From: Bifidobacterium breve
GTDB taxonomy: Bacteria > Actinomycetota > Actinomycetes > S36-B12
NCBI GenBank assembly: GCA_945861925.1
Contig: CAMAWO010000003.1
Coordinates: 1-43,583 of the forward strand
Length of the DNA: 43,583 bases
Reading direction: 5' to 3'
Shown: positions 3,979 through 10,081 of the stretch, one piece after another
Layout: every line of letters starts with the position of its first letter
How positions within the stretch are numbered: position 1 is the first letter of the stretch
The notes under the pieces: model-generated
What the model saw: the letters and a program-made list of their open reading frames with translations, nothing else
Database searches by the model: none
Told to the model about the DNA's origin: nothing
Made by a program: the position numbers and the translations under genes

Positions 3979-4053
3979 CGCGGTGTTCGATTCGCAGATG
4001 ATCTCAACCGAGCTCAGAACACGAGCGACGGCCGAGGTTGAGCCCCCGGTCAG
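3979..4053 (+). repeat. Direct repeat copy 2: deleted, diverged copy of the SGNH 3' end fused to the tRNA-Thr fragment
   Basis: CGCGGTGTTCGATT..GCAGATG joined directly to ..CACGAGCGACGGCCGAGGTT-AGCCCCCGGTCAG. Confidence 0.85.
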
Positions 4054-4087
4054 GATTGAACTGACGACCTACCGCCAACAAGGCGGA
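4038..4087 (-). pseudogene. 3' half of a tRNA-Thr (att-like remnant)
   Basis: Minus strand reads TCCGC-CTTGTTG-GCGGT-AGGTC-GTCAG-TTCAATC-CTGAC-CGGGGGC-T: anticodon arm, T-arm and acceptor strand, with no D-arm or 5' strand. Confidence 0.85.
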
Positions 4088-4204: not shown

Positions 4205-5641
4205 ATGAGGGGACTGCCTGGCGGTGCGGAACCAACGCCCTACAGGCACGCTGATGGCACGCAGCGGACCGATGCGAAGGGTGTGCCGGGATGGCGGCTG
4301 AGGTGGACTCCGATGGGCGGTGGCAGCCAGCGGTCACGGACGTTTTACGGCACTGAAGTCGCCGCTGCTCAGGAACTTTCACGCCTGACAGCAAAACGTG
4401 CCGTTGTTGCGGTGAGTCGGCGCAGGGTGACGCTCTATGACTACTTGGGTGCCTGGCAGGAGGAATACCGCCAGCGGTGTGAGCGCATGACGATGGCACG
4501 GTCGTCGTGGAAGGAGCACGAGTCAAACGTCCGACTGTATCTGCGCCCCGCATTGGAGGATTCTGAGTGGAAGGACAGGCGGCTCGGTTCCTTCGAGGCG
4601 GATGAACTCGTTGATCTCGCGAATGGCTTCAGGCTGGCAGGTGGTGGGGAACCCTCCAATTCGATGCGCCGGTCTGTGCGAAAGACCCTCGTCATGTCGT
4701 TAGGCCAGGCCGTTGAGGACGGCATCATCTCTACGAATCCGTTGAACGGCATGGCTGACTGGTCTATCGGTCAGCCGACGGTGTTCGTTCCAGACCTCGT
4801 CCAATTGCACAAGGTGGCAGCAATCATGGGGTCGATGCCCTCGCTGGTGACTGCGACAGAGTCGGTGCAGGCGAAGAAGGCTCGATTGAAGGCCAGACGT
4901 GAAGGCGAGCCGGCGAGGATGGTGTCTCGCGTACGTGAGGGTGCGGCGCGTCCGTGGCTGGAATGGATGCTGCTTGTAACGGGTTGGACGGGGCTGCGGA
5001 TCGGCGAACTTCTCGGCTTGCGGCTGGAAGATGTGGATTCAAACAACCGATTCTTGCGGGTGCGACAGTCGGCGACGGTGAGCGGCGGGCGTTACCGGGA
5101 AGGTGACACGAAGTCGAAGGCAGGTGTGAGGATCGTGCCGATCCTCCCCGACGCCGAATCTGCGATTAGCGCGTTGGAGGACAGGGCGTATGCGATGCCA
5201 TCGAAGCCGACGCACCTGTTCGCAGGCGGGGGGAGGCGTGCATCTCGGCTTGCCGCCGATGGAAGCCGCAAGACGGTGAGCCGGCCGGCCGCCATCGGCT
5301 ACTCGGAGATATCTCGGGAACTGCGAGAGGCATGCCGCATCGCAGTTGAGCAGGGCGTTATCCCCGAGCCATTCACCCTGCATGCTCTTCGCCACACGTT
5401 CTGCTCAGCCTTGTTGTCGGCAGGTGTCTCCGAGGAAAAGGTGTCGGTATGGGCTGGTCATTCAAGTCCGATAGTGACCCGGAATGTTTACGCGGTTGCG
5501 ATGCCCGGCAACATGGAAACGGTCGCGGCGGAGGTGGGAGCGCAGGTGGCTGACTACTTCGGACGTCAGCGAACGCCGTACGGAGTTCGAGTCGCCAAAC
5601 TGGAAGAGATGCGCAAGCGTGGACCCGAGGGCGTCAAGTAG
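4205..5641 (+). CDS. Tyrosine recombinase/integrase, phage/ICE type with N-terminal arm-binding region
   Basis: TGLRIGELLGL (box I R), TKSKAGVR (K), HALRH, WAGHS..VTRNVY (catalytic Y). Confidence 0.95.
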   Translation: MRGLPGGAEPTPYRHADGTQRTDAKGVPGWRLRWTPMGGGSQRSRTFYGTEVAAAQELSRLTAKRAVVAVSRRRVTLYDYLGAWQEEYRQRCERMTMARSSWKEHESNVRLYLRPALEDSEWKDRRLGSFEADELVDLANGFRLAGGGEPSNSMRRSVRKTLVMSLGQAVEDGIISTNPLNGMADWSIGQPTVFVPDLVQLHKVAAIMGSMPSLVTATESVQAKKARLKARREGEPARMVSRVREGAARPWLEWMLLVTGWTGLRIGELLGLRLEDVDSNNRFLRVRQSATVSGGRYREGDTKSKAGVRIVPILPDAESAISALEDRAYAMPSKPTHLFAGGGRRASRLAADGSRKTVSRPAAIGYSEISRELREACRIAVEQGVIPEPFTLHALRHTFCSALLSAGVSEEKVSVWAGHSSPIVTRNVYAVAMPGNMETVAAEVGAQVADYFGRQRTPYGVRVAKLEEMRKRGPEGVK

Positions 5642-5655
5642 AGTTAGGCATCACC

Positions 5656-5732
5656 GCCCCTGTAACTCAGTTGGCCAGAGTGCCGCACTTGTAATGCGGG
5701 AGTCGACGGTTCGAATCCGTCCGGGGGCTCCA
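5656..5732 (+). tRNA. tRNA-Thr(TGT) with encoded CCA
   Basis: GCCCCTG/CGGGGGC acceptor; ACTC/GAGT D-stem; CCGCA-CTTGTAA-TGCGG anticodon arm; GACGG-TTCGAAT-CCGTC T-arm. Confidence 0.95.
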
Positions 5733-5909: not shown

Positions 5910-6491
5910 TCACGCGGCTACTTCGGCGAGGTAGCGGTTGAGGGTGCGGCCGCTCACACCGACTCGTGCCGCCGCTGCGGGCACGGACATCCCCTCAGTC
6001 TCGATATAGGCACGGGCTCGGGCCACCATCGTGGAAGTAAGGACGCGGGCGCGCCCCCCGATTGCTGACTTGCCCTTCGCCTTCTTCGCCTCGGCAACCC
6101 GATTCATCATCAAGGTGCGTTCATAACTCGCCGCTGCAGAAAGCACGGCTATGACCAGCATTGACGAGGCAGAACCATCGAGGGTGACCCCGGCCTCCGT
6201 GAGCGACCTGAATCGGACGCCACTCTCCTGAAGGCGGGTGAGTGTGGAAATGACATCGGGGAGGCTCCGGCCCCAGCGGTCGAGGCGAACGACGACGACC
6301 TCGATGTGCTCACCCGCTGCGGCGGCGGTGATGGCCTCCTCGACGAGGGACACGAACACGGCGCGGTCGGATTTCGCCCCCGACCCGATCTCGACGCGGA
6401 TGTCGATAATGCCTTCGGCGGTCAGGAGTGCGTGCTGTGTCGCGAGGTCTTGTGACCCGCTGCTGACTCGTGCATAGGCGATTCGACGCAT
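5910..6491 (-). CDS. Serine recombinase (resolvase/invertase family) with C-terminal HTH
   Basis: YARVSS, RLDRWGRS, YER, C-terminal VGVSGRTLNRYL. Confidence 0.93.
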   Translation of the reverse strand: MRRIAYARVSSGSQDLATQHALLTAEGIIDIRVEIGSGAKSDRAVFVSLVEEAITAAAAGEHIEVVVVRLDRWGRSLPDVISTLTRLQESGVRFRSLTEAGVTLDGSASSMLVIAVLSAAASYERTLMMNRVAEAKKAKGKSAIGGRARVLTSTMVARARAYIETEGMSVPAAAARVGVSGRTLNRYLAEVAA

Positions 6492-6575: not shown

Positions 6576-6914
6576 CTCGGTGTTCGACAGAGGTGTGCCG
6601 TGTGACAGCCCTGGAGGCGATGCACGTGGGCGGGCACCTGATGACTTTGTGGTGGTGGGTGTCGCGTCCTGCGGCGGCCGATCTGCACGCAGTCGCCATG
6701 CCGTTTCTCAAGCGGAGGCGTATTGTCGGGGTCCTTGCTGCCGTGGCTGTGCCGCCTCTGTCTCCCCCGTCAGTGGCTGGACTCCCGGCAGCGACATTGT
6801 TTGTGCCGGCTTTCTCCTGCGTAGCGTTCATTGCTGGCATTCGGACTGAACAGCGGACACTGGCCGGTAGGTTCGCACGAGGACCGTCAATGGCCGAGGA
6901 GTACGGGGGAGCGC

Positions 6915-7301
6915 ATGAGTAAGAAGGCTTTTGGCGGTATGACACTGAAGTTGGCGGGTGTCCTGGCAGTGACGGGGATGCTGCTTGCGGGATGCGCGAC
7001 CGGCAGCACTGAGGGCGATGTGCAGGCTCCAGTTCCGGCTGCGGACACGAACGCCGGCACCACGACGACTGGCACCGGCGGACAACTGATTCAGATTCAG
7101 TCTGACAATGTTGCTGCTGCGGGCTACGACGCTGCGTCCCGCACGATGCTCGTCGAGTTCGATGACGGGTCGTTGTATGAGTACGCGCCGGTGCCGGTAT
7201 CAGTTTGGATGGATTTCGTTGCGGCGCAGCCGCATCCGTGGAGCCGAGTTGGCAATCCGGTTCTGGTCCAGGGCGGGGTCCCGTATCGGAAAGTCCGCTG
7301 A
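6915..7301 (+). CDS. Lipoprotein with C-terminal KTSC domain
   Basis: Lipobox LAGC; IQSDNVAAAGYDAASRTMLVEFDDGSLYEYAPVP matches the KTSC pattern. Confidence 0.8.
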   Translation: MSKKAFGGMTLKLAGVLAVTGMLLAGCATGSTEGDVQAPVPAADTNAGTTTTGTGGQLIQIQSDNVAAAGYDAASRTMLVEFDDGSLYEYAPVPVSVWMDFVAAQPHPWSRVGNPVLVQGGVPYRKVR

Positions 7302-7440
7302 CTTTGTGTTCCGGGGGTGGTTAGGCACTCTTCTGGGTGCCTCTTTTTGGTCGGCGGGGGAGCGCGGGGTGCGCTCGTTGACTTTCCCTTCTCAGCCTGT
7401 CGAGTGTCTGCTTCCTGAAATGCGCCCCTCCTGAAGTCCA

Positions 7441-7686
7441 CTGGGCGTGCTCTGGGCGACTGAGCGTGCTCCCTTGTTGGCAGCGAGTCCTTGCTGGCTG
7501 CTCATTTCATTGAAGTCGTCGTGCGCACTTCAGCGAACGAGGCCGGCCTAGAGACGGCTTTCGGTCGTAGTCCGACCATTGGTAGTAGGGGAGTTTCCTT
7601 CGTCATCTGAGGACACTCGGGCGCACTCGTTGACCGGGTTCCGGGCCCGCATGTCCCCCATGTAGGCGAGCATGCGGGCACGCCAG
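7441..7686. repeat. Structured non-coding repeat, copy A (~245 nt)
   Basis: Colinear with 8766-9011; ends are complementary (GGCGTGC/GCACGCC). Confidence 0.85.
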
Positions 7687-7691
7687 ATGCC

Positions 7692-8357
7692 TCATGCGGC
7701 GGCCGACCGCCGCGCTGCAGTCGTAGGACCACTCATGGCGTACAGAAAGTTCATGCTTACTCCGGATGGGGACGAAGGCATGACTGTCTCCCTCGGCGCG
7801 GTCGGCGGCTGCGCGGACGTCGTCGGATTCGATGTCGCCGCCGCACTGTCCTGCTTGCCGTTCGACAGCATCACTGCGGTCATCCCCTCCTCGCCCGGAG
7901 TGAGCATGATCGTTCCGGTTGCACCCACCCCGTACACGACGCCTTTGGGATTCATGACCATCAGGACTCGCGTCGGAGCCGTCCAGTTGGACTCGGTGAA
8001 CTTTCCTTCTTTAGCCGCTTTGCACTCGGTCGCTTGCACCGCGCAGTCCACCCACTGCTCCCACGCAACCGCAGCCGACCCCAACACCTTGCGAACGGTC
8101 AGCAGATGCTGCCAACTGACCGGTTGGCCGTCCTGGAATCCCGTCAACGACGTCCACCACGTACCTTTCATATCCGTCATCGAATCAATCGGCCCGGACG
8201 TCGGTGCGGCCACCGCTGACCCCGCCCCACCGACCGACAACGACACCGCGAACAGCGCCGCACCGACGACCGCCACCCCTCGACGTGCGGACCTACTCAC
8301 GTTCAAGCCTGTTCCCATAGCCGTACTCCGCTCCGTAACGATGAGGATCCGACTCAT
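7692..8357 (-). CDS. Secreted hypothetical protein (start may be ATG 8318)
   Basis: Signal peptide ending AVAA; Trp-rich body, one Cys pair; no family recognised. Confidence 0.65.
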   Translation of the reverse strand: MSRILIVTERSTAMGTGLNVSRSARRGVAVVGAALFAVSLSVGGAGSAVAAPTSGPIDSMTDMKGTWWTSLTGFQDGQPVSWQHLLTVRKVLGSAAVAWEQWVDCAVQATECKAAKEGKFTESNWTAPTRVLMVMNPKGVVYGVGATGTIMLTPGEEGMTAVMLSNGKQDSAAATSNPTTSAQPPTAPRETVMPSSPSGVSMNFLYAMSGPTTAARRSAAA

Positions 8358-8675
8358 CCCGATGCCTCTTAGACGGACGATATCCCGTCAAGGTTCCCGG
8401 ACAGGTGAACAATTTCAATTTGTGACCTGAATAGCCGATTCCCCCAAGGGGATGTGGTGCCTGAACGGTCGACTTGCCCTCCCTTCGACCTATCTGCCTT
8501 CATTAATTGCGCCACCGGGGGGTCAAAGGCAGCGTACGTTGGCGAACGAGGTCGCTCCCTTTGAGTGCAACCTCATGCTCATGACTGTCACTGTTCGCAA
8601 AGAGTCAACTCGTGCACGCTTGAGCATGCTGAGCGTGCTGCCCTTCGACGGCCAGGCGAACTTCGGTTCGCCCTG

Positions 8676-8715
8676 TAGGCAGCCGGCTCGGGCGAACGGT
8701 TCGCTGAGTAGACGG
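8676..8715. repeat. Truncated repeat fragment D (deletion derivative of copy C)
   Basis: TAGGCAGCCGGCTC.GGCGA...GGTTCGC matches 9030-9059; GTTCGC..AGTAGACGG matches 9119-9135. Confidence 0.6.
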
Positions 8716-8765
8716 TCCCCGTGTCATCGCAACTCTTCTATGTAGGGGACGTCCCCTTGGGCCGG

Positions 8766-9011
8766 CTGGCGTGCTTTCGGCGACCAGCGTGCTCCTTGTT
8801 GACGGCGAGTCCGTCCGTCCTGGCAGTTGGGTTCATTGAAGTCGTCGAGCGCACTTCAGCGAACTAGGTCGGCCTAGAGACTTCTTTCGGACGTAGTCCC
8901 ACCATTGGTGGCAGGGGAGTTTCCTTCGTCGTCTGAGGACGCAGGGCGCACTCGCTGGCTGGTCTCCTTGGCACGCTCGTCGCCCACGTAGACGAGCATG
9001 CAGGCACGCCC
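8766..9011. repeat. Structured non-coding repeat, copy B
   Basis: Shares TTCATTGAAGTCGTCG.GCGCACTTCAGCGAAC, AGGGGAGTTTCCTTCGTC.TCTGAGGAC and GAGCATGC.GGCACGCC with copy A. Confidence 0.85.
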
Positions 9012-9029
9012 GTCGCCCCCGTCAACGAG

Positions 9030-9267
9030 TAGGCAGCCGGCTCCGGCGACTCGGTTCGCCTCTTTCAGGGTTGACCTCGTGCTGGCTGCTCAGTTCATTG
9101 CAGCCGACTAGCGACCACGTTCGCCTAGTAGACGGAACTCCGCCGGCTAGAGCGCACTGGCGATCTCGGTAGACGGGTCGTCACGAGGACTCGGCGCTCT
9201 TGGTAGGCAAGGAGGCTCGAGCGAACATGTCGCCCCCGTAGGCGAAAGCGAGAAGGCATGCCCGTCA
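9030..9267. repeat. Structured non-coding repeat, divergent copy C
   Basis: TGCTGGCTGCTCA.TTCATTG, GAGGAC.CGGCGC, CATGTC.CCC..GTAGGCGA and GGCA.GCCCGTC blocks in the same order as A/B. Confidence 0.65.
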
Positions 9268-9295
9268 TCCCGTCTACGTGAGCGTCCCCGGCGTG

Positions 9296-10081
9296 TTAAC
9301 CGGTGACAGGGCCGATGAGGAGATTCGCGAGTTCCTGCTCGGGCTTGCGCTGACCGCCGTGCTGCGCTGTGAAGGCCGCGCTGGCGTCGGTCCCACACAT
9401 CCCGAGGATGACGCCCTGCCCCCCGGGATGCGCGGCGATCCATGAGGTGAGGTCGTACGCGCTGCCGTTGACCGCCGACCAGCAGTCGGTGGGCGAGTTG
9501 TGCTGGGCAACCTCGGCCATGGTGACGCTGCCGTCGCTGGTCGTGGTGGTGGCCGCCGATGCATCGCTCAATGACGTCGTGGCCGGCTGTCCTGTCGCGA
9601 GGGTGCGTCCCCACACGGCCTCAGCGCCCGTGTGCCCGACGAGGACCGTCATGACAATGGTTGCCATTGCGAGCAGCACGCCCACAATGGCGGTGAGTGT
9701 CGTGAGGAGCGATCGGCCCTCAGCACTACGAAAACGTGTGAGCCACACCCAGATCGCCGCGACCACGAGGAGGATGGCCGCGAGGTACACGAGGATCGAT
9801 CCCCAGTCCGCATGCTGCTGGGGCTGGCCGACGAGACCGGACAGGGCTTGACCGGACTGCTTCGCGAGGACGGAGCCGACCGCCCCGATCGCCAGACCCA
9901 CGAGGGCGATGAGGTCAAATGGTCGACGCCACTTCTTGACAAGCACGACAAAGATGAATAGCAGCGCAGCTAGTGGCAGGACAACGACCACGAGATGGAC
10001 GACGAGGGGGTGTAGGGGAAGTCCCGCGAACGACTCAAACGCCCCTTCGGACAATAAAGCCATCGCCGACCTCGGGATCAT
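9296..10081 (-). CDS. DUF2231-type membrane protein fused to a cytochrome b5-like heme-binding domain
   Basis: GLPLHPLVVH...GHTGAEAVW; EVAQHNSPTDCWSAVNGSAYDLTSWIAAHPGG...FTAQH. Confidence 0.88.
   Translation of the reverse strand: MIPRSAMALLSEGAFESFAGLPLHPLVVHLVVVVLPLAALLFIFVVLVKKWRRPFDLIALVGLAIGAVGSVLAKQSGQALSGLVGQPQQHADWGSILVYLAAILLVVAAIWVWLTRFRSAEGRSLLTTLTAIVGVLLAMATIVMTVLVGHTGAEAVWGRTLATGQPATTSLSDASAATTTTSDGSVTMAEVAQHNSPTDCWSAVNGSAYDLTSWIAAHPGGQGVILGMCGTDASAAFTAQHGGQRKPEQELANLLIGPVTG

Follow-up and report, generated by a model that had tools for sequence, protein, structure and literature searches.

The non-coding repeat family described here (REP) is, in the reading that we favour but hold tentatively, as somewhat short of probable, a set of portable homology blocks at which recombination and gene conversion reshuffle gene modules. 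Lying between the genes of variable secreted-protein and lipoprotein arrays in flexible, tRNA-linked islands, REP would act at the DNA level, through inter-copy recombination and gene conversion that are most simply of the RecA type, and this exchange would replace, duplicate, delete and re-join the modules lying between REP copies, so that recombination between copies would leave arrays that differ among species at otherwise conserved loci. Homologous exchange, rather than a dedicated recombinase, would do the work, as a role of the repeat and not as its mere fate, and it accounts for the observations no less well than a dedicated site would. The support for recombination comes from the comparison of contigs, from which its product is deduced rather than directly seen. 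If this reading is true, it gives a concrete view of how secreted and surface proteins turn over in a lake group of Actinomycetota, in which conserved non-coding blocks delimit exchangeable modules and can serve as landmarks for island turnover in metagenomes and for junction PCR.

The window (the whole stretch of DNA analysed, 43,583 nucleotides of contig CAMAWO010000003.1) contains the following features in and around the repeat region.

4205–5641, plus strand: tyrosine integrase of the island (Pfam Phage_integrase, 2e-15)
5656–5729, plus strand: tRNA-Thr, between integrase and resolvase (Rfam tRNA, 67 bits)
5910–6491, minus strand: small serine recombinase of the resolvase/invertase type, 193 aa (Pfam Resolvase, 1.5e-21)
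6831–7301, plus strand: KTSC-domain gene, which closes the platform on the side of copy A (Pfam KTSC, 2.4e-12)
7302–7425, no strand assigned: platform junction, consisting of the KTSC terminator hairpin (7323–7342) and a conserved stretch (96–98% identical in three genomes)
7408–7694, plus strand: REP copy A, a full unit standing alone, nearest of the copies to the platform (nhmmer profile positions 2–288, E 4e-79)
7692–8357, minus strand: secreted protein gene, the sole gene between REP copies (no Pfam or NCBIfam family)
8302–8656, minus strand: leader of the secreted-protein gene, comprising a promoter-like region, 5' UTR and signal-peptide start (88% identity to L036 5587–5938)
8542–8760, plus strand: D-type diverged unit of about 200 nt (aligns colinearly with D-type sequence found ahead of REP at other loci)
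8734–9022, plus strand: REP copy B, a full unit (nhmmer profile positions 4–290, E 3e-82)
9030–9284, plus strand: C-type diverged unit (nhmmer profile match 9045–9269, E 1.4e-7)
9296–10081, minus strand: cytochrome b5/DUF2231 gene, the right border of the variable region (Pfam)

Copies A and B, as delimited in a preliminary description of this DNA (7441–7686 and 8766–9011), are colinear, with 81.7% identity over 246 columns (E 4.7e-60) and an ungapped block of 128 nt at 87% identity. That description also recognised C as a diverged copy and D as sharing blocks with the others, all of which stands, but the homology exceeds the limits it set: a profile search with nhmmer gives a real unit length of about 290 nt (7408–7694 for A, 8734–9022 for B), and its fragment D (8676–8715) lies inside the D-type unit. 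The latter, whose sequence extends into the far end of the gene leader, makes up the left-hand third of a conserved D-B-C composite of about 0.74 kb that recurs as a single block at other loci (L028 1242–1714 matches 8542–9019, and L030 matches 8655–9176). A full unit followed by a C-type unit is found at seven loci (the window, L036, L038, L040, L046, L053 and L101), and the final 30 nt of the C-type unit in the window are an inverted copy of the REP right-end motif (8981–9010 against 9255–9284, 73% complementary). REP takes two forms, single units of about 290 bp and tandems of two or three diverged units. Units measure 250–290 nt, and three copies lack the centre but retain the ends. Pairwise identity among copies is 59–90%, with 47 invariant columns in an alignment of 12 copies, and each genome carries about 4–8 of them. 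The repeat also interrupts assemblies, with G000:C55 terminating within a copy and C267 beginning 94 nt short of one.

The ends of the unit are rich in short motifs. GGCGAC-NN-GCGTGC occurs in copy B at 8779–8792, with inverted copies at 8971–8984 and 9004–9017, and 27 nt are directly repeated, at 8970 and 9003; genome-wide the motif is found seven times, five of them inside REP, against 2.6 expected. GCRYGC is present four to five times per REP unit, where the 99th percentile is three, and copy B has five occurrences where the genome averages 0.6 per 290 nt.

The family is undescribed and restricted to a few related freshwater actinobacterial genomes of one genus. It was found in four of eight genomes of the genus and in two stray contigs, a small and related sample that amounts to about eight distinct loci. 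When 173 genomes of the family were searched, those of the genus included, the 165 others yielded no true copy; outside the genus this search returned 13 weak matches of 20–42 nt, of which six were fetched and none was a copy, the two that were inspected being coding DNA. A search of 60 relatives also took in 24 genomes from other families. Pattern scans gave 21 matches in metagenomes (three true, one of them new) and 41 in genome contigs (six true, one of them new), while the single match in viral contigs was not a REP copy and the plasmids and phages searched contained none. Except for tRNA, no Rfam family reached its gathering score anywhere in the window, and nothing appeared at E<=10 in 7300–9400. 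The earlier statement that the family could not be recognised is borne out both by Rfam and by full-text literature searches, which brought up nothing resembling the repeat.

On the platform side of the repeats, the integrase and resolvase proposed earlier are real by their Pfam matches. The anticodon of the tRNA-Thr between them is UGU by our reading of the loop, and its sequence was compared with the native tRNA-Thr of G001; no tRNA-derived att repeats of at least 12 nt were found bounding the island. The resolvase, which has a weak C-terminal HTH_23 match (5e-4; 20.2 bits, below the Pfam cut-off of 24.6) and reaches the cut-off of no NCBIfam model, lies about 0.9 kb from copy A with the KTSC gene in between, and in G006 it adjoins the orthologous copy (95.7% amino-acid identity over 162 residues). 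The KTSC gene is convergent with the array, and its orthologues adjoin REP in L043, L041 and L101. The last 28 nt of the junction (7397–7425) are common to a second platform locus (G005:C200:364–391 and G000:C55:18897–18926). Two platform loci include genes for a serine recombinase and for a tRNA-linked integrase, locus 1 being represented by the window, L043 (which shows the recombinase only) and L101 (a 2.7-kb contig with neither), and locus 2 by G000:C55, G002:C27 and G005:C200 (which begins beside the junction). The serine recombinases of the two loci are 28% identical, and that of locus 2 ends about 20 residues past the catalytic domain, with no HTH. In G005, the KTSC platform has no adjoining resolvase. 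The proposed association of the repeats with variable gene content and, at two loci, with recombinase-bearing islands is upheld.

The one gene between the copies in the window has its probable true start at 8318, as judged from leader alignment. Its product matched only unnamed actinobacterial secreted-protein clusters in the Atlas (best score 0.84), and its paralogues on C114, C162, C34, C231 and C4 (60–75% amino-acid identity) have no REP nearby. The leader is homologous to the leaders of Lcl_C lipoprotein genes, with ten leader matches in G000, and carries on the minus strand the motif GGAAC-N17-CGTC (8372–8397), which we take to be a putative ECF-sigma promoter. Followed in the direction of the genes, most loci have a C-type unit after the upstream gene, then a full unit, and then the leader and the next gene. 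In this direction REP adjoins the start of the leader with its left end, about 100–160 nt before the start codon (G000:C171, L053 and L044), and the right end begins at or just past the stop of the upstream gene (7692–7694 for copy A). Genes antisense to the plus orientation make up 23 of 33 within 1 kb of repeat clusters, a count that depends on our crude gene caller and includes orthologous loci that are not independent; genes were called by codon-usage score, GC3-based calling having missed island genes. At some loci, L036 for one, the between-copy genes lie on both strands.

At the right border, the cytochrome b5 gene is conserved in three congeners (85–91% DNA identity, with 85–90% in G001 and G005; 91% amino-acid identity in G002), and homology to relatives begins at 9294–9295. 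Beyond this gene, the fetched 4–6 kb of two congeners contain no repeat, and in the third the nearest lies at 4 kb. From these sequence comparisons, the cytochrome b5 gene is a core gene and not a cassette. The stops reported earlier for the two genes are where they were said to be (7692–7694 and 9296–9298), whereas of the single cargo ORFs pictured between repeats only that at 7692–8357 stands, and the cytochrome b5 gene does not.

Behind the KTSC platform, the content after the first copy differs from genome to genome. In the window it is the secreted-protein ORF; in L043 and L101 it is a gene of the F1 family (a BLAST cluster, several members of which carry an Lcl_C domain; the L101 call is from DNA homology to F1 genes); and in L041 a truncated copy is followed by two other ORFs, a full copy and then a homologue of the window ORF. 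Between species, orthologue identity drops abruptly at the outer edge of REP, from 96–99% to 60–87%, and the break falls within a few bases of that edge in three comparisons at locus 1 and in one at locus 2; for copy A, divergence from the positional orthologues begins at about 7426. At locus 1, identity of the window falls from 96.0% over 7302–7425 to 63.5, 60.6 and 72.6% over the REP thirds against L043, and from 97.6% to 74.3, 86.0 and 69.0% against L101, with the KTSC gene at 84%. Because four-fold degenerate sites in the neighbouring genes are 73–78% (KTSC) and 91.6% (resolvase) identical, all three REP thirds lie below the local neutral level against L043, whereas two of the three do not against L101, and relaxed constraint rather than replacement could be behind part of the low identity at this locus. 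At locus 2, G002 and G005 are 99, 96, 93 and 98% identical in four successive 100-nt windows ending at the junction, 87, 81, 79 and 83% over REP and the C-type unit, and 59% further on.

The copies themselves are mosaic, and those of one genome resemble each other more closely than they do their positional orthologues. Copy A is 83% identical to a paralogue (G000:C171) and 67% to its positional orthologue in G006, and the nearest relative of a copy switches segment by segment. A PHI-like test on nine of 13 copies with 58 informative sites (four were omitted for large internal deletions or strong divergence) gave 0.503 against a permuted value of 0.588 +/- 0.020, with none of 2000 permutations as low, and 56% of site pairs were incompatible. 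In public Logan contigs from four lake-water runs, some joints leap over one or more unit lengths (8811>9078, 8650>9086 and 8252>9091) and others repeat them; at 90% likeness these may equally stem from paralogous loci or other strains, and they speak neither for nor against expression or inversion. Not all of this follows from homology blocks: plain exchange predicts scattered crossovers, but the breaks sit at the outer edge instead, which either the end of homology or a defined crossover point can explain, and homology alone leaves unexplained the conserved inverted end motifs and the lack of a centre, with ends kept, in three copies.

A defined crossover point would be expected if REP, together with the 28-nt array-terminal element (7397–7425), were the site-specific recombination site at which the neighbouring serine recombinase or integrase inserts, excises or exchanges gene modules, which we regard as quite unlikely; this is the attC-like idea of the preliminary description without the integron. 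Such a site would fit the two platform loci, where a serine-recombinase gene and an integrase stand beside the first copy and the same 28 nt mark its outer edge, the identity break at that edge in four of four comparisons, the paired inverted motifs at the unit ends and the variable gene content behind the first copy. It fits poorly with G000:C171, G002:C36, G002:C19 and G005:C240 with G006:C178, where no recombinase gene is present in the 3–17 kb seen, with a locus-2 recombinase that lacks an HTH and a G005 KTSC platform that lacks a resolvase, and with mosaic copies that indicate several breakpoints rather than one. Moreover, junctions of circles, deletions or inversions at a fixed position were not seen; none of 14 full copies, aligned or profile-matched, has an inverted centre; and the contigs of the four runs hold no strand-changing joint, which is weak evidence as contigs drop rare variants. 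The same two observations speak against an inverton served by a serine invertase. A resolvase res site is a cluster of dimer-binding subsites next to the resolvase gene, at which two directly repeated copies recombine; REP lies 0.9 kb from the resolvase of the window, across the KTSC gene. Very unlikely indeed is the further possibility that REP and the 28-nt element, which two otherwise unrelated platform loci have in common, are cassette-exchange sites of Actinomycetota, run by the serine recombinase or the tRNA-island integrase; these would parallel integrons in function, with different parts, and would move whole promoter-bearing secreted-protein modules. Classical integrons are rare in Actinomycetota, and a dedicated recombinase, if true, would mean a cassette system of new build in this phylum. 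Unlikely, though with some chance of being right, is that REP is a cis-regulatory DNA or UTR element, whether as an upstream platform on which a regulator of the leader promoter binds, or by insulating neighbouring genes or terminating transcription between them. Its position between an upstream stop and a conserved leader, its conserved blocks without covariation, which fit recognition by a protein, and the motifs clustered at both of its ends are all consistent with this. However, these genes can do without it, as eight of the ten leader matches in G000 lack a REP within 1.2 kb; what follows copy A in gene direction is a leader remnant and a terminator rather than a gene; the end motif was not found upstream of other genes; a sigma-70 scan found no promoter; and terminator-like sites are at chance level (3 against 2.1 +/- 1.6 expected).

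A non-autonomous, MITE-like transposable element or its relic would explain why a 250–290-nt intergenic sequence is multi-copy, carries inverted end motifs with a centre that three copies dispense with, interrupts contigs and is closer to paralogues within a genome than to positional orthologues; we nevertheless consider it very unlikely, since copies are only 59–90% identical, occupy the same loci in different species and point one way with respect to leader and C-type unit, which random insertions would not, while no target-site duplication could be defined, the inverted sub-motifs are not mirrored in order, and searches of plasmids, phages and viral contigs found no copy. The sole adjacent transposase gene, of the ISAzo13 type (L038), is cut off at a D-type unit and has no inverted repeat or ends in common with REP, and a link to it was rejected. 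An undescribed structured ncRNA or a strand-specific folded ssDNA signal, as suggested in the preliminary description, is highly improbable. The helices named there do occur as inverted repeats in A and in B, so that fold-back holds for single copies, which fold somewhat better than shuffles (z-scores of -1.60 and -2.72 for the plus and minus strands of A, and -2.56 and -2.91 for those of B); these values are modest and no better on the plus strand. Across 12 copies, 81.8% of cells in the helices pair, as opposed to 27–40% when the 3' partners are slid, but shuffled partners pair at 80.9% and 68 of 500 shuffles reach the observed value, so the helices are kept because the sequence is kept; the covariation score, reached by 38 of 500 shuffles, is not significant. 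Five of six pairs in helix 3 vary on one side and none on both, and the inner helix said to keep pairing through its changes shows one-sided changes only, via G-T pairs; in the terminal helix 1, one pair changes on both sides, in two related copies. RNAalifold consensus folds are weak (-17.9 kcal/mol on the plus and -7.8 kcal/mol on the minus strand), with covariation terms of +0.22 and +0.8 that do not help, and Rfam offers no match. The registers of the right-end hairpin differ between A and B in our reading of the folds, the strongest inverted motif pairs cross each other and so cannot nest in one hairpin, and Pfam scans of the window and related loci brought up no gene for conjugation, replication or a relaxase, for which an ssDNA signal would be required. 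A more general caution is that 290-nt 'structured' repeats in high-GC genomes can mimic RNA helices, as they do here because of near-palindromic GCRYGC motifs. Finally, we give next to no credence to the copies being decayed protein-coding paralogues: short minus-strand ORFs overlap them (7502–7732 and 8864–9025) but score well below zero on codon usage (-0.28 and -0.34 per codon), no frame is open throughout all 13 copies, and five of 132 internal gap runs are divisible by three. By these sequence measures, REP is non-coding.

The portable homology blocks that we favour resemble several known systems in part. As in integron arrays, REP repeats part varied genes, a recombinase-bearing platform lies at one end, a distinct short element marks the platform edge of the first repeat, and content varies among relatives. 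Integron cassettes, though, are mostly promoterless and read in one direction, away from the integrase and off a platform promoter, whereas in REP arrays each gene brings a promoter-like leader and most genes point towards the platform, and many REP copies have no nearby recombinase. An attC site is an imperfect palindrome of 57–141 nt in which structure is conserved and sequence is not. The attC analogy drawn in the preliminary description, and with it membership among integrons, fails on unit length (290 nt), on conserved sequence without conserved structure, on the promoter-bearing genes, on the cytochrome b5 gene, which is not a cassette, and on the score of the window integrase (34.8 bits against a cut-off of 265 for TIGR02249, and 26.3 bits against 435 for NF011946); the locus-2 integrase matched no integron integrase model.

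Variable surface-protein families offer a second comparison, with the Sma/Cla repeat downstream of Neisseria pil loci and the conserved 5' regions of Mycoplasma vsp/vlp/vsa genes. REP arrays share with them genes whose leader and signal peptide are conserved and whose body varies, along with conserved non-coding blocks and mosaic exchange. In contrast to those families, they give no sign of a single expression site or of phase or antigenic variation, every array gene comes with a leader of its own, most leaders lack REP, and the bacterium is a free-living one from lakes. Lcl_C/DUF1566 domains are frequent targets of diversity-generating retroelements, but such an element was rejected, as no RVT_1 reverse transcriptase was found by Pfam in G000 (87.6% complete) or in 158 translated ORFs from the window and related loci.

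Interspersed intergenic repeats and MITEs such as REP/BIME, ERIC, Correia elements and MIRU are, like the present family, taxon-restricted, multi-copy, intergenic and non-coding, with inverted end motifs, and break assemblies. REP differs from them in its far fewer copies, its confinement to variable islands, its frequent diverged tandems, its fixed orientation to neighbouring genes and the lack of any target duplication found. Aquatic bacteria also carry additive flexible genomic islands beside tRNA genes, and the window region is like these in being tRNA-linked, with an integrase, surface or secreted cargo and content that varies among close relatives. In the order Nanopelagicales, genomic islands carry microdiversity, according to the portion of PMC12817590 considered here, and that portion does not mention a repeat family that marks out modules. 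This repeat family, marking out the modules of an island, is the new point.

Alignment of copies A and B of the repeat gives 81.7% identity along their entire length (E 4.7e-60) and contains a gap-free block of 128 nt that is 87% identical, in line with their description as colinear homologues; the repeats in the window are real, with chance excluded by a wide margin. The preliminary description was right to see a repeat, but its unit of ~245 nt was too short, since a profile derived from the initial copies sets limits that give ~290 nt. It also recognised C correctly as a divergent family copy, whereas its short fragment D, though related, is part of a larger diverged unit. The features of the window are as follows.

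4205-5641: tyrosine integrase, the first element from the left
5656-5729: tRNA-Thr gene, between the integrase and the serine recombinase
5910-6491: serine recombinase, 193 aa
6831-7301: KTSC-domain gene, followed by copy A
7408-7694: copy A, full unit (profile limits)
7692-8357, minus strand: the one secreted-protein gene between copy A and D-B-C
8302-8656: leader preceding the 7692-8357 ORF, with GGAAC-N17-CGTC at 8372-8397 on the minus strand
About 8542-8760: D-type diverged unit of ~200 nt, including fragment D
8734-9022: copy B, full unit (profile limits)
9045-9269: C-type unit (profile match E 1.4e-7)
Right of D-B-C: cytochrome b5 gene, the region border

D, B and C form a single colinear block that is found again at other loci, and the repeat family is real, undescribed, non-coding and restricted to the genus. 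For codon usage, ORFs overlapping the copies score -0.28 and -0.34 per codon, whereas real neighbouring genes score +0.04 to +0.45; no reading frame is open throughout all 13 copies, and of 132 internal gap runs just 5 are divisible by three. Together these results rule out a coding repeat, and it is scarcely credible that the copies are decayed coding sequence.

As a structured RNA, the repeat is neither recognisable nor well supported. Rfam yielded no match at the gathering score or at E<=10, which agrees with the novelty originally claimed. Single-copy folds slightly beat shuffles (z -1.6 to -2.9) without a preference for the + strand, and RNAalifold on 12 copies (an alignment that excludes the later finds L053 and L101) gave -17.9 kcal/mol for the + strand and -7.8 for the - strand, with covariation terms adding nothing. 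On the same alignment the proposed helices do pair, at 81.8% against 80.9% with partners shuffled among sequences (81.8% being reached in 68 of 500 shuffles), but their covariation does not rise above shuffles, 38 of 500 reaching the score, and the inner helix said to change while keeping its pairing shows one-sided changes only, via G-T pairs. A structured RNA or ssDNA signal is thus poorly supported and highly improbable. The apparent helices arise from two sequence features: the near-palindromic hexamer class GCRYGC, present 4-5 times per unit (genome mean 0.6 per 290 nt, 99th percentile 3), and the 14-nt motif GGCGAC-NN-GCGTGC, with one copy at the left end of the unit and two inverted copies at the right; of its seven genome-wide occurrences (2.6 expected), five lie within repeats. 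The motif pairs X'/X and Y'/Y cross, so that a single hairpin could accommodate one of them but not both, and sites in duplex DNA would fit them better than a fold.

The region of the window that holds the repeats is a variable interval running from a tRNA-Thr site to the conserved cytochrome b5 gene. The latter had been proposed as cassette cargo; together with the next gene, however, it is 85-91% identical at the DNA level in three other genomes of the genus (G001, G002 and G005) and hence core genome, and what comes after it there is a 254-aa gene and a DUF2332 gene rather than repeats, so it is no cassette. Compared with loci L038, L085 and L086, the window at 9270-9296 is without the 254-aa and DUF2332 genes, and 27 nt separate the end of the C-type unit from the cytochrome b5 stop; the right island border is therefore a replacement or deletion breakpoint. 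Towards the left, a 3' fragment of the native tRNA-Thr gene, ~47 nt long and starting at the anticodon stem, is found a short way upstream of the integrase (4040-4086, minus strand); in G001 the gene is intact at the corresponding place, with a flank 94% identical. Since the intact tRNA-Thr of the window differs in sequence from the native one and lies on the opposite strand to the fragment, the island has apparently disrupted the native gene and carried in a replacement.

The first repeat of an array adjoins recombinase genes at two platform loci. The order at locus 1 is resolvase, KTSC, first repeat (in the window, L043 of G006, and L101), or KTSC, repeat in L041 of G005. Locus 2 runs gyrA, DUF3566, tRNA-Ile, tRNA-Ala, integrase, second serine recombinase, first repeat, and was found on G000:C55 (G000 being the window's own draft genome), G002:C27 and G005:C200; the gyrA-to-tRNA-Ala side is visible only on G000:C55, and G005:C200 starts beside the junction. 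The serine recombinases of the two loci are 28% identical, and that of locus 2 has no DNA-binding domain beyond the catalytic domain. On G002:C27 (L036, 7615-8247) it ends ~20 residues past the catalytic domain, with no HTH, and the gene may be truncated; the space between this gene and the integrase is occupied, on the opposite strand, by an ORF that weakly matches MmeI_C. The first repeat has the same 28 nt at its outer edge in both loci. The supposed association with recombinases therefore stands for these two loci, but the remaining repeat loci have no recombinase gene within the DNA examined. Integron membership was rejected, and with it the attC analogy in its integron form: integrase type, attC form and cassette organisation all depart from the integron definition.

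At other loci the neighbours of the repeats fall mostly in one BLAST cluster, F1, whose members include lipoprotein-like genes encoding an Lcl_C domain at the C-terminus as well as larger fn3/pentapeptide proteins. An aligned leader is common to F1-type neighbours and the window ORF, and carries the conserved motif GGAAC-N17-CGTC, a putative ECF-sigma-type promoter; downstream come a UTR (~55-60 nt) and a signal peptide. Judged from this alignment, the probable start of the window ORF is 8318 rather than 8357. The usual order in gene direction is gene, C-type unit, full unit, leader, following gene, and 23 of 33 called neighbour genes within 1 kb are antisense to the orientation first assigned to the repeat. 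The leader matches ten times in G000, upstream of secreted-protein and lipoprotein genes, and since eight of these have no repeat within 1.2 kb, the repeat is not tied to every such gene. The 7692-8357 ORF itself belongs to a multi-copy family in G000 (C114, C162, C34, C231, C4; 43-75% amino-acid identity) that matches no Pfam or NCBIfam model; three paralogues stand in tandem on C34 and two lie at contig ends.

Identity between positional orthologues drops sharply at the repeat's outer edge. At locus 1, the window and L043 are 96.0% identical over 7302-7425 and 63.5, 60.6 and 72.6% over successive thirds of the repeat; for L101 the values are 97.6% and 74.3, 86.0 and 69.0%. The neighbouring genes have 73-78% and 91.6% identity at four-fold sites, so that divergence exceeds local neutral sites in all thirds against L043 and in one third only against L101. 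At locus 2, identity between two species is 93-99% before the junction, 79-87% across the repeat and 59% past it. Copy A is 83% identical to a paralogue within G000 and 67% to its positional orthologue, the closest relative of a copy varies by segment, and a PHI-like permutation test run over 9 of the 13 copies was significant (0 of 2000 permutations as low). The genes behind the first copy differ in each genome, as the proposal of variable content between copies predicted. Across three genomes the non-coding stretch 7302-7425, 3' of the KTSC gene, shows 96-98% identity, against 84% for the gene and 73-78% for its four-fold sites; within it lie a terminator hairpin, another hairpin and the 28-nt end common to both platforms.

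The best-supported mechanism, which we favour tentatively, is that the repeats would serve as portable homology inside flexible islands, where recombination and gene conversion would reshuffle promoter-bearing secreted-protein modules. This reading leaves unexplained why the end motifs are conserved and paired, and why identity breaks at the repeat edge in 4/4 comparisons, and for that reason three rivals stay alive: that the repeat is regulatory DNA, which is unlikely; that it is part of a dedicated site-specific system, which is quite unlikely; and that it is a MITE relic, which is improbable. There is a small chance that the repeats mark a cassette-exchange system of new build. The two nearest functional analogues of the repeats are presumably conserved non-coding blocks flanking variable surface-protein gene families and taxon-specific interspersed repeats.

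The family is present in 4/8 genomes of the genus, at ~4-8 copies per genome. In G000, a draft of 334 contigs (87.6% complete), further copies are a full and a C-type unit on C171, a partial unit at the start of C267 and a unit running into the end of C55. Among 165 other genomes of the same taxonomic family there were just 13 short, weak matches, of which six were retrieved and held no copy (the two inspected were coding DNA); 24 genomes from other families of the order gave no match, and the plasmid and phage collections searched no copy. Single exact-pattern scans of large collections reduced 21 matches in metagenome contigs to three true copies (one new, L053), 41 in genome_contigs to six (one new, L101) and one in viral contigs to none. 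Given this narrow occurrence, the family is young or narrow. The literature searched, including text from a paper on Nanopelagicales islands (PMC12817590), describes no such repeat. Repeat-bearing records are titled as Actinomycetota and 'Candidatus Nanopelagicales' MAGs, apart from two discordant labels: L095 and L101 are filed one under a gut bifidobacterium and the other under an acidobacterium (in no stated order), likely through binning or labelling errors. The window stretch is present in lake-water metagenomes, and in four such runs (X1-X4) summed contig depth, a poor measure, is 3-5x that of the flanks over 8152-8739, the leader region, consistent with a community that contains many copies of the leader.
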